Virus record (IMG/VR): IMGVR_UViG_3300009285_002354 | Location: 64,001-106,595 of that record | DNA: 42,595 bases | Strand: one strand, 5' to 3' | Source of the DNA: a virus | Taxonomy: Duplodnaviria > Heunggongvirae > Uroviricota > Caudoviricetes | Part shown: positions 21,169 to 23,101 of the stretch, piece after piece | How positions within the stretch are numbered: the stretch's first letter is position 1 | How the letters are laid out: every line of letters begins with the position of its first letter | Position numbers and translations under genes: made by a program | Notes under the pieces: model-generated | What the model saw: the letters and a program-made list of their open reading frames with translations, nothing else | Databases searched by the model: none | Told to the model about the DNA's origin: nothing

Positions 21169-21672
21169 TCAGTGCCGGTATATGGCGCCGAAGGTCGTCA
21201 GAACGCCCTCATCCAAGTCCTCTGCGCTACCCTCCGGCGTGGAGCGTTCGACGGCTACGTAGGGGTGAACTGGCGATTTCAGTAGAAATTCCGTCCTGAT
21301 ACCCGGCAAGAACAGGAAGTCGGCATCGCGAGTCTCCCACAAGAAGGCCAGCGTGCCATAGACCTTCACGGGGGCATTCTGCAGCGATCCCCAGTCACCC
21401 GGCACGATATGATCCGCGACCGCCAGGGCAATATCGCTCAGTGCAAATTCCAACGCAGGCCCGACTGCTACGTTCGACTCCGTGTCCTCAGGGATCACCG
21501 AATCAGTCATCACGCGCACCCCAATCCCGCCGTTCGGGTCCGGGCTGTACATCACCGCGAGTTGCGAGGTTTCGTAGTTGCTGCCCCCCGATACCGCCCA
21601 TTCGCCCGTCTGGCAGCCCGCCAGAAGCACAATGAGACCCATCGCGATGAACATGAGAATTGACTTTGCCAT
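21169..21672 (-). CDS. Lipoprotein
   Basis: MAKSILMFIAMGLIVLLAGC lipobox; AAAGGAG RBS; beta-strand-rich body. Confidence 0.75.
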   Translation of the reverse strand: MAKSILMFIAMGLIVLLAGCQTGEWAVSGGSNYETSQLAVMYSPDPNGGIGVRVMTDSVIPEDTESNVAVGPALEFALSDIALAVADHIVPGDWGSLQNAPVKVYGTLAFLWETRDADFLFLPGIRTEFLLKSPVHPYVAVERSTPEGSAEDLDEGVLTTFGAIYRH

Positions 21673-21721
21673 GACTTGACTCCTTTCAAAAAGGGGTAGT
21701 GTCCTATTTTCTTCTTTTTTC

Positions 21722-21913
21722 TTGACCGTTCCCAAAGACCTTTCGGTCTGTATCCATAAATGCACTCACTGCGGCCTTGTACTTGGCCGTGACGAAAATG
21801 CGGCACGGAACATTCTGAACCGCGCCCTTCAAGCAGCACCCGGCCCCGGTAGGGAGATCGGTAACGCTCGCGGAGCGCCGATAAGCCCCGTTGCGGTTTC
21901 CGCAGCGGGCTGA
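21722..21913 (+). pseudogene. tnpB: tnpB C-terminal remnant
   Basis: KDLSVCIHKCTHCGLVLGRDENAARNIL = second Zn-ribbon CxxC plus RuvC-III D-x-N-A-A-x-N-I motif. Confidence 0.88.
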
Positions 21914-21945
21914 CGTGTTGAAACGAGAAGTCCTCATTTTAGGAC
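21856..21945 (+). ncRNA. Putative omega-RNA (reRNA)-like scaffold
   Basis: Stems ATCGG/CCGAT enclosing CGCTC/GAGCG, hairpin 21885-21910, terminal GTCCT/AGGAC hairpin; overlaps the tnpB 3' end as TnpB RNAs do. Confidence 0.5.
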
Positions 21946-22039
21946 ACTACCCAAAAAGGTATCCTACGGTTGACTATGCTTTAGTAGTAGCCGCCGTCAA
22001 GAGTAAAGTCAACAATAAGAGCAAACAAAATTCGCGCGA

Positions 22040-23101
22040 TCAGATTCCGACGTACTGGTAGCTCGCGAGAATGACCCCGCTCCTGGCCTTGAATTTCCCA
22101 CTGGAATGCTGCGACGATCCATTTCCGTAAAAACCGCTGCATCGCCAGCGAGAGTCGTGTTTTAGCCCCTTGATGATCGCTGGGTGACTCGATGTGATAC
22201 TCAATTTCAGCCCCTGCGCCTTGAGATAATCTCCCATCATTCCCAGTGTCGCCCTGCCTATCCCCACTCCCTGATATTCCGGCAGTACGACGATTCGATG
22301 CACCCGCCGGCAGCCCTTGAATCCGTACAGTGGCATCAGGGCGCAGAATGCGACGAGCTCCGAACCCCAGAAACACCCGTAAGACTGCGCCCCTAGCGCC
22401 AGGGCTGCGTTCAGATAGTGATGCTTCGCAAACATTCGCCACGCTTCGCGCGCAATGCCTCTAAGCTCAAGATTGATTTCGGGTCGCCGAAGATGCCTCC
22501 GCACAAAGGTGTCATCCTTCAAATCCAGTATCCAGTCCGGTTCCAGCCACTCCACAATATCGTAATGACAGGAGAGTGCAATCATCTGGCCCCCGCGGCG
22601 CCGAATCGTCTTGCTCACCGCGGCCGATCCGATCTTCGCCACTGTGCGATCGACCACCGATGTGAACTCGTCCACGACGAGCAGCCCCTCGACCTCTATC
22701 ATCGCCCTGGCAAGCTCAGCACGGAACTTCTCTCCGTTACTCAGAACATTGAAGGGCTTGCACCAGCTCGGAGGGCTCGAAAATCCAACTGAGGACAACA
22801 CCTCAATAATCTCTTGAATCGGCACGCCGGACCGGAACCCTTCCACCACTGCTTTGTTCTTCGGCCAGTCGAAGCCCACATGAATCCGATCCCCGAATAT
22901 CTTCCTGGCAATCGTGCTCTTGCCGGATCCACTCGGGCCCACGATTAGCCCCACATTCCACTGCCACCCCTCAATCGGAAGTTGTAGCTTCCATTCGTGC
23001 CTCAGTTTGTCCTTCAGAGGCAGATCGAACATGCCCTTGATCTGGGCCACGCGGAATGTCTCTATGATGGGAGAATCCACTACAACGTCAACAATCGGCA
23101 T
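22040..23101 (-). CDS. ABC-type ATPase fused to GNAT acetyltransferase
   Basis: GPSGSGKS, LSNGE signature, VVDEF Walker B, SCH H-loop; RIVVLPEYQGVGIG acetyl-CoA motif. Confidence 0.88.
   Translation of the reverse strand: MPIVDVVVDSPIIETFRVAQIKGMFDLPLKDKLRHEWKLQLPIEGWQWNVGLIVGPSGSGKSTIARKIFGDRIHVGFDWPKNKAVVEGFRSGVPIQEIIEVLSSVGFSSPPSWCKPFNVLSNGEKFRAELARAMIEVEGLLVVDEFTSVVDRTVAKIGSAAVSKTIRRRGGQMIALSCHYDIVEWLEPDWILDLKDDTFVRRHLRRPEINLELRGIAREAWRMFAKHHYLNAALALGAQSYGCFWGSELVAFCALMPLYGFKGCRRVHRIVVLPEYQGVGIGRATLGMMGDYLKAQGLKLSITSSHPAIIKGLKHDSRWRCSGFYGNGSSQHSSGKFKARSGVILASYQYVGI

Follow-up and report, generated by a model that had tools for sequence, protein, structure and literature searches.

A 257-bp phage-borne unit with inverted ends, an abutting direct repeat and an IS605-type guide-RNA module

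The window, meaning the whole 42,595-nt stretch of DNA analysed here, makes up the rightmost 42.6 kb of an IMG/VR virus record of 106.6 kb whose completeness is estimated at 89%, and it occurs in public runs of groundwater metagenomes. Two minus-strand phage genes in this window flank an intergenic insertion site, where a 257-bp unit (21695-21951) with perfect 12-bp inverted ends is bordered on both sides by the 8-bp direct repeat CAAAAAGG. The element lies 15 nt ahead of the start codon of the lipoprotein gene, counted to the side of the codon that faces the repeat; the gene's ribosome-binding site (AAAGGAG) abuts the left copy of the repeat and was left intact by the insertion. The unit is single-copy in the 106.6-kb record and brackets exactly its only TnpB-like sequence; no tnpB was found elsewhere in the record. 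The features of the locus are the following.

21169-21672, minus strand: lipoprotein-like phage gene (MAKSILMFIAMGLIVLLAGC...), with its real start at the ATG at 21672-21670
21687-21694, no strand: direct repeat CAAAAAGG, left copy, a putative target-site duplication (from the sequence and shuffles)
21695-21706, plus strand: left terminal inverted repeat GGTAGTGTCCTA, perfect complement of 21940-21951
21695-21724, plus strand: left-end remnant of 30 nt, T-rich past the inverted end, with the junction at 21724/21725
21725-21913, plus strand: tnpB 3' remnant, 62 codons and a TGA stop, with the second zinc-ribbon CxxC and RuvC-III
21779-21920, plus strand: omega-RNA-type module, homologous to the module of an IS605-type TnpB family and overlapping the tnpB 3' end
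21930-21945, plus strand: terminal hairpin GTCCT-CATTTT-AGGAC, with its 3' arm within the right inverted end
21940-21951, minus strand: right terminal inverted repeat (TAGGACACTACC on the plus strand), read from the sequence
21952-21959, no strand: direct repeat CAAAAAGG, right copy, which would open any right-flank guide
22040-23101, minus strand: phage gene encoding a fusion of ABC-type ATPase and GNAT acetyltransferase, upstream and in the same operon direction

The 12-mer of the inverted ends occurs at two sites only in the window, against 0.04 expected, and two matches were reached in none of 100 shuffles; no further site was found outside the two ends in the window or in the whole virus record. 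The complementarity can be extended by one position, with GGGTAGTGTCCTA (21694-21706) pairing perfectly with 21940-21952 over 13 nt, or over 12 if its outermost pair is assigned to the flank; this thirteenth pair arises because CAAAAAGG starts with C and ends with G. The structure could also be read as 13-bp ends around which the repeat is 6 bp long, although 12 and 8 is the more parsimonious division. An inverted repeat of such size is by itself unremarkable in the window, where 26 pairs of at least 11 nt within 3 kb were counted against a shuffle mean of 26.9. However, only 1 of the 26 pairs is abutted by a direct repeat. An inverted repeat combined with a direct repeat of at least 6 nt appeared in 6 of 200 shuffles, the repeat of the element being 8 nt long, and for an 8-bp repeat directly next to both arms the expectation is about 0.001 per window (27 pairs x 3 registers / 4^8). 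The perfect 12-bp ends and the 8-bp repeat on both flanks, which the initial annotation had pointed out, were thus read directly from the sequence, and their combination is unique in the window. Inverted ends flanked by a short direct repeat are the pattern by which DDE-type IS-derived MITEs are recognised, and the element displays it. In the one insertion seen, the 8-bp repeat would represent a duplication of the target. The right flank at 21957-21967, overlapping the last GG of the repeat, reads GGTATCCTA and looks like GGTAGTGTCCTA with three bases missing, perhaps because a transposase prefers targets similar to its ends, or by chance.

Within the unit, a 63-aa frame (21722-21913) contains the second of the zinc-ribbon CxxC pairs of TnpB (CTHC) and the RuvC-III motif RDENAARNI. 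From 21725 onwards it translates as T-VPKDLSVCIHKCTHCGLVLGRDENAARNILNRALQ..., a stretch that includes both. The frame matches Pfam PF07282 with an E-value of 1.2e-5 and 25.8 bits, for a cut-off of 26.3, and can be aligned codon by codon to the C-termini of TnpBs found in viral contigs, metagenomes and genomes; an exact-protein look-up returned no record for it. The zinc-ribbon/RuvC-III remnant proposed from the letters alone is supported by the second CxxC, RDENAARNI, the PF07282 match and the many TnpB relatives. RuvC-I, RuvC-II, WED and REC, which a complete TnpB would have, are missing, and only the 30-nt left end lies upstream of 21725; judged from its frame, the remnant cannot encode a nuclease.

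TnpB relatives of the fragment number in the hundreds among the matches listed, at 50-79% identity, the closest of those listed reaching at most 78% over 36-40 residues. The best metagenome and genome matches listed from protein-pattern scans were L039 (78% over 36 aa), L040, L118 and L038, and the inverted ends of the element are absent from all four. Overall, the closest of the matches listed share 54-78% identity over 36-62 residues, and still closer relatives may exist. Accessible relatives are canonical IS605-type elements with right ends that stop at an invariant GGAGUNGUCAC. A Y1 transposase gene (tnpA) lies beside tnpB in L053, a member of a 15-sequence family described below, and in L049, a more distant locus outside that family; these neighbours identify the family as IS605-type. 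Around the tnpB genes of the fetched loci, no inverted ends with a duplication were found, only IS605-like palindromes (perfect seeds of at least 10 bp). Ordinary IS605 ends in full-length relatives had been named beforehand as an outcome speaking against an inverted-end transposon; such ends are indeed seen in the relatives, but they are not decisive, the relatives being distant. This TnpB clade is often observed in phage-like DNA, and one 212-kb viral contig carries two tnpB loci (L004 and L021). On another contig, of 3.7 kb, a tnpB (L281:3190-3680) is accompanied by a DpdA-like gene about 1.5 kb downstream, with five small ORFs in between.

The family comprises 15 sequences (L053, L118, L004, L040, L041, L046, L050, L074, L076, L077, L095, L017, L018, L278 and L281) that share a well-defined omega-RNA. 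It has three covarying stems, the last of which contains the stop codon of tnpB, and terminates invariably in GGAGUNGUCAC. RNAalifold analysis of the 15 relatives gave 28 pairs in the family module, 19 of the 28 with compensatory changes. A covariance model built from them (R1) produced a single match in the window, at 21779-21865 inside the element, with an E-value of 8e-9. The fold of the element contains P3 (21857-21882) and P4 (21884-21911), the latter preceded by AUAAGCC, and the equivalent of P2 is weak; the stop codon of tnpB falls in the 3' arm of P4, in the element as in the relatives. Furthermore, the region 21725-21975 folds better than its shuffles (z -2.47). An omega-RNA-like scaffold overlapping the tnpB 3' end had been suggested, with several stems and a last hairpin reaching into the right inverted end. 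The R1 match and the covariation-supported family stems bear out the former, and the stems and the hairpin are present. Rfam holds no family for the element's version of the omega-RNA. In the minimum-energy fold, an internal GGUAG (21848-21852, in the place of P2) pairs with CUACC at the right end (21947-21951), a helix of 5 bp that may be due to chance.

The resemblance to the family extends up to P4 and no further. In L053, L118, L004, L040, L278 and L281, the TnpB C-terminus is 54-78% identical to that of the element, and the omega-RNA has the same layout (...AAGCC, then P4, with the stop codon in the P4 3' arm). The 3' module of the 15 relatives runs from the RD(E/V)NAA codons to GGAGUNGUCAC, which directly follows P4 in 15/15 of them, ends about 9 nt past P4 and is followed by diverging flanks, without inverted ends and without a duplication. 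In the element, by contrast, P4 is followed by CUGACGUGUUG instead of GGAGUNGUCAC, and the sequence runs on for 42 nt to the end, compared with 9. The roughly 32 extra nucleotides past the canonical end, which include the hairpin and the inverted end, have no counterpart in the relatives, and none of the 15 has an equivalent of the terminal hairpin. The best look-alike of GGAGUNGUCAC, GAAGUCCUCAU at 21927-21937, lies 17 nt further on and matches at 7/10 positions, which is not significant (about 0.16 by chance). The stop codon of the tnpB remnant is 38 nt from the end of the element. Separately, a possible long-range pairing between AAAAUGCGG (21795-21803) and CCUCAUUUU (21932-21940) involves 8/9 positions, with a chance expectation of about 0.04, and is not relied on here. 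The 9-mer CCTCATTTT, found at 21932-21940 in the window, also stands directly after the canonical right end (...GTCAC) of L040 (972-980), with an estimated chance of about 0.05 for such sharing.

The left junction was clarified by a different groundwater sample. In run X5, a 214-nt contig matches 21725-21799 with five differences (about 93% identity) and departs from the element upstream of 21725, where the 30 nt next to the junction read TSQECSRCGE in frame. This is the first zinc-ribbon CxxC, which precedes VPK in all relatives. Because the contig continues into tnpB upstream of 21725, the unit is an internal-deletion derivative, as the initial annotation had supposed, and the in-frame upstream letters indicate that a full-length tnpB about 93% identical to the remnant exists in the X5 community. 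When the left 30 nt were compared with the sequences upstream in 127 relatives, the similarity stayed within the null distribution; they contain no hairpin, unlike the subterminal hairpins of IS605-type ends.

Searches for the parent, for other copies and for an empty site covered several collections. Exact searches with the right-end 22-mer gave zero matches in viral and metagenome contigs; the left-end 20-mer, both ends with a gap of 218-248 nt, the P4 27-mer and the X5 upstream 30-mer likewise gave zero in viral contigs. Neither plasmid nor phage records matched by blastn, and nothing closer than L118 was found in 400 Planctomycetota genomes. A word-based protein search yielded no candidates for the fragment itself; with a 380-residue read-through frame it gave a best match of 74% identity over 54% of the fragment. 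Among 1.84 billion representatives, a profile-free search reached at best about 60-74% identity across about 40 residues. The top match of the representative search, P0001, is a protein of 4,428 residues in which two stretches match fragment residues 17-52 (E 4e-17, 36% identity); a fusion, a repeat protein and a gene-calling error are all conceivable. No parent IS that shares these ends and encodes the transposase was found in the virus record, viral contigs, metagenome contigs or the 400 Planctomycetota genomes. More generally, the predicted arrangement of both inverted ends around a full tnpB and a transposase was not encountered in the viral, metagenome and genome collections or in public runs. 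No intact tnpB member with these ends was present among the metagenome and genome matches listed, nor was a gene-less element with these ends found in viral and metagenome contigs. The expected empty site with a single CAAAAAGG did not turn up via related phages, the closest of which is 55% identical in a neighbouring protein and none of which has the lipoprotein gene; no read joints skipping the element were found.

An identical copy of 21714-21925 is present in X7, a soil run of another study, in a piece whose X7 flanks are not visible. This run contains 0.78 of the words of the element, compared with 0.17 of those of the surrounding 1.1-kb phage region, and on these word counts the unit probably also lives outside the phage. 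No second copy with visible flanks was found. A contig over the left junction in X5/X6 starts at 21691, inside the left repeat, with a depth of 5.5 against 2.6 for the right-junction contig, which may point to more than one context for the element or only to low coverage.

The combination seen here, perfect inverted ends directly flanked by an 8-bp repeat, is the hallmark of DDE-type transposases. We favour, with a probability of roughly 0.55, the reading that the unit is a non-autonomous MITE-like element whose parent was a solo TnpB cassette between the same DDE-type inverted ends. The parent would have belonged to a TnpB lineage that descends from IS605 elements and switched to another vehicle, with the 3' end of its guide RNA remodelled so as to run into the right inverted end. 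One internal deletion would have fused 30 nt of the left end to what is left of tnpB, its final 62 codons, together with the omega-RNA module that overlaps them. A transposase of the DDE kind (cut- or copy-and-paste), coming from elsewhere and probably from the host, would have inserted the 257-bp unit into the phage intergenic region, leaving the 12-bp inverted ends and an 8-bp target duplication. Since the virus record contains no tnpB and no IS1595- or IS6-type transposase (PF13610 gave no match), mobilisation would have taken place in trans. We infer the DDE mechanism and the architecture of the parent; the DDE-type transposon with a recruited TnpB that the initial annotation had envisaged as parent is plausible though unproven, no full-length element with these ends having been found in the viral, metagenome and genome collections or in public runs.

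What counts against the cassette origin, besides the full-length element, the second copy with visible flanks and the empty site that were looked for and not found, is that the accessible relatives are all canonical IS605-type and that the left 30 nt lack recognisable homology to the sequences upstream in relatives. The last two observations also speak for a chimera, in which an IS605-type tnpB (Y1-mobilised or solo) was nested near the right end of an unrelated inverted-repeat element and a deletion then ran from 30 nt inside the left end of this host element to mid-tnpB. The tnpB tail would in that case be captured cargo, and a guide-like RNA would carry fixed host-element sequence, not phage flank. 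The right ends of the relatives about 9 nt past P4, the unmatched stretch of about 32 nt beyond this point with its hairpin and inverted end, and the dissimilarity of the left 30 nt to tnpB upstream regions all agree with such a history, and the finding of IS605-type relatives only may either favour it or mean that the cassette lineage is simply unsampled. Nevertheless, we consider the chimera rather unlikely. The DDE-cassette reading is more parsimonious, because one deletion suffices where the chimera takes three events; moreover, GGAGUNGUCAC would be expected to come along with a nested tnpB, yet it is absent after P4 and its look-alike is not significant, and no gene-less element with these ends was found in viral and metagenome contigs. 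A remodelled right end also fits better than an IS605 end that merely landed there, because GGAGUNGUCAC is missing after P4 and 42 nt lead on to the inverted end.

Site-specific recombination offers a different account of the same ends, with a tyrosine recombinase integrating a circle and the 8-bp repeat serving as crossover core and not as a duplication. The circle would carry TAGGACACTACC-CAAAAAGG-GGTAGTGTCCTA, the layout of lox, FRT and dif (inverted arms around a 6-8-bp core), tyrosine-recombinase-associated TnpBs have been reported (PMC10691335), and the X5 left-junction contig begins inside the repeat. However, low coverage can account for that contig start, the reconstructed phage target ...GACTCCTTT-CAAAAAGG-TATCCTACGG... 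lacks the matching inverted arms that simple recombinase sites need, and no recombinase gene travels with the unit, which makes this account very improbable. Least credible of all is the view that the unit is what remains of a canonical IS200/IS605 or IS607 element, with inverted ends and a repeat that arose by chance or target preference. The tnpB and the omega-RNA module of an IS605-type family would fit it, as would the ordinariness of a 12-bp inverted repeat alone in this window, but the abutting 8-bp repeat has the expectation of about 0.001 given above, a subterminal hairpin is missing from the left end and the canonical motif from the right. To our knowledge, IS200/IS605 elements have neither inverted ends nor target duplications, and the relatives studied here agree. 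IS607 elements likewise have neither inverted ends nor duplications, according to PMC6188088.

The element can be set beside known systems. Meers et al. (2023) reportedly described Geobacillus PATEs, which derive from IS200/IS605 elements and have lost the genes but not the guide-RNA module. Like these and other stand-alone omega-RNAs, the element shows an internal deletion with both ends and the RNA module kept, and has neither a nuclease nor a transposase gene. Those units have asymmetric ends with subterminal hairpins and no duplication, whereas here the inverted ends are perfect and accompanied by an 8-bp repeat. Activity in trans has been demonstrated for them; for the element it would be possible in principle. 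In the case of DDE-associated TnpBs, each of the six branches (DDE-1 to DDE-6) is bounded by inverted terminal repeats, tnpB ends within 250 bp of the transposon end on its 3' side, and solo TnpBs with the same ends occur (Altae-Tran et al. 2023, PNAS, PMC10691335). That TnpB can reside in transposons with inverted ends, an uncommon arrangement, has therefore been reported before. The element resembles them in the inverted repeats around tnpB, in the closeness of its 3' end to one end (here with the stop 38 nt away) and in a mobilisation that would occur in trans. It differs in being a gene-less remnant for which no transposase or full-length member was found, and in a module that resembles the Y1/IS605-type family and not a known DDE branch, as far as 62 residues allow this to be judged.

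Regarding the family of the ends, IS6/IS26 elements have a 14-bp consensus, GGTTCTGTTGCAAA, with conserved G1, G2, G7 and G10, and generate 8-bp duplications (Harmer and Hall 2019, PMC6807381). Of the IS6 kinship suggested earlier, the shared G1, G2 and G7 (GGnnnTG; GGTAGTG in the element) and the 8-bp repeat stand. Against it, G10 is absent, only 7/12 positions match GGTTCTGTTGCAAA, and GGnnnTG is common to IS1. In addition, IS26-type elements move by cointegrates, and no transposase was found for the element.

In the phage, the operon runs through the unit in antisense to the scaffold. No plus-strand promoter was predicted in or before the unit, and no RNA runs were present among the listed public runs holding the element. 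Read on the minus strand, the terminal hairpin resembles a weak terminator placed upstream of the lipoprotein gene. The element is probably an inert passenger insertion, and any RNA from it would be putative; a right-flank guide, if read, would start CAAAAAGGUAUCC. Donation of a guide in trans would be possible in principle, given that stand-alone omega-RNAs work in trans (Altae-Tran 2021, as cited in PMC10691335), but only if the plus strand were transcribed and a cognate host TnpB were met. A more far-reaching version, which we hold to be improbable, would combine a TnpB of IS605 (Y1) ancestry, housed in a DDE-type vehicle that has GGnnnTG ends and makes an 8-bp duplication, with gene-less phage copies that guide the host TnpB against insertion-free phage genomes, the guide RNA extending across the 12-nt inverted end and on into the target duplication. 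If true, this would amount to a two-part RNA-guided drive or exclusion device.

TnpB in inverted-end transposons and stand-alone guide-RNA elements are both already in the literature, and the one decayed copy described here is a useful example rather than a discovery. New is the appearance, in a phage, of a gene-less unit that joins inverted ends and a putative target duplication to an IS605-type guide-RNA module, which shows that units of this kind reach phage genomes. If the parent was a TnpB cassette between DDE-type ends, an IS605-type guide-RNA module would have been re-fitted to a target-duplicating transposon, which raises the question of how a guide and a target-adjacent motif work with a duplicated-target flank and a scaffold that reads through the inverted end.
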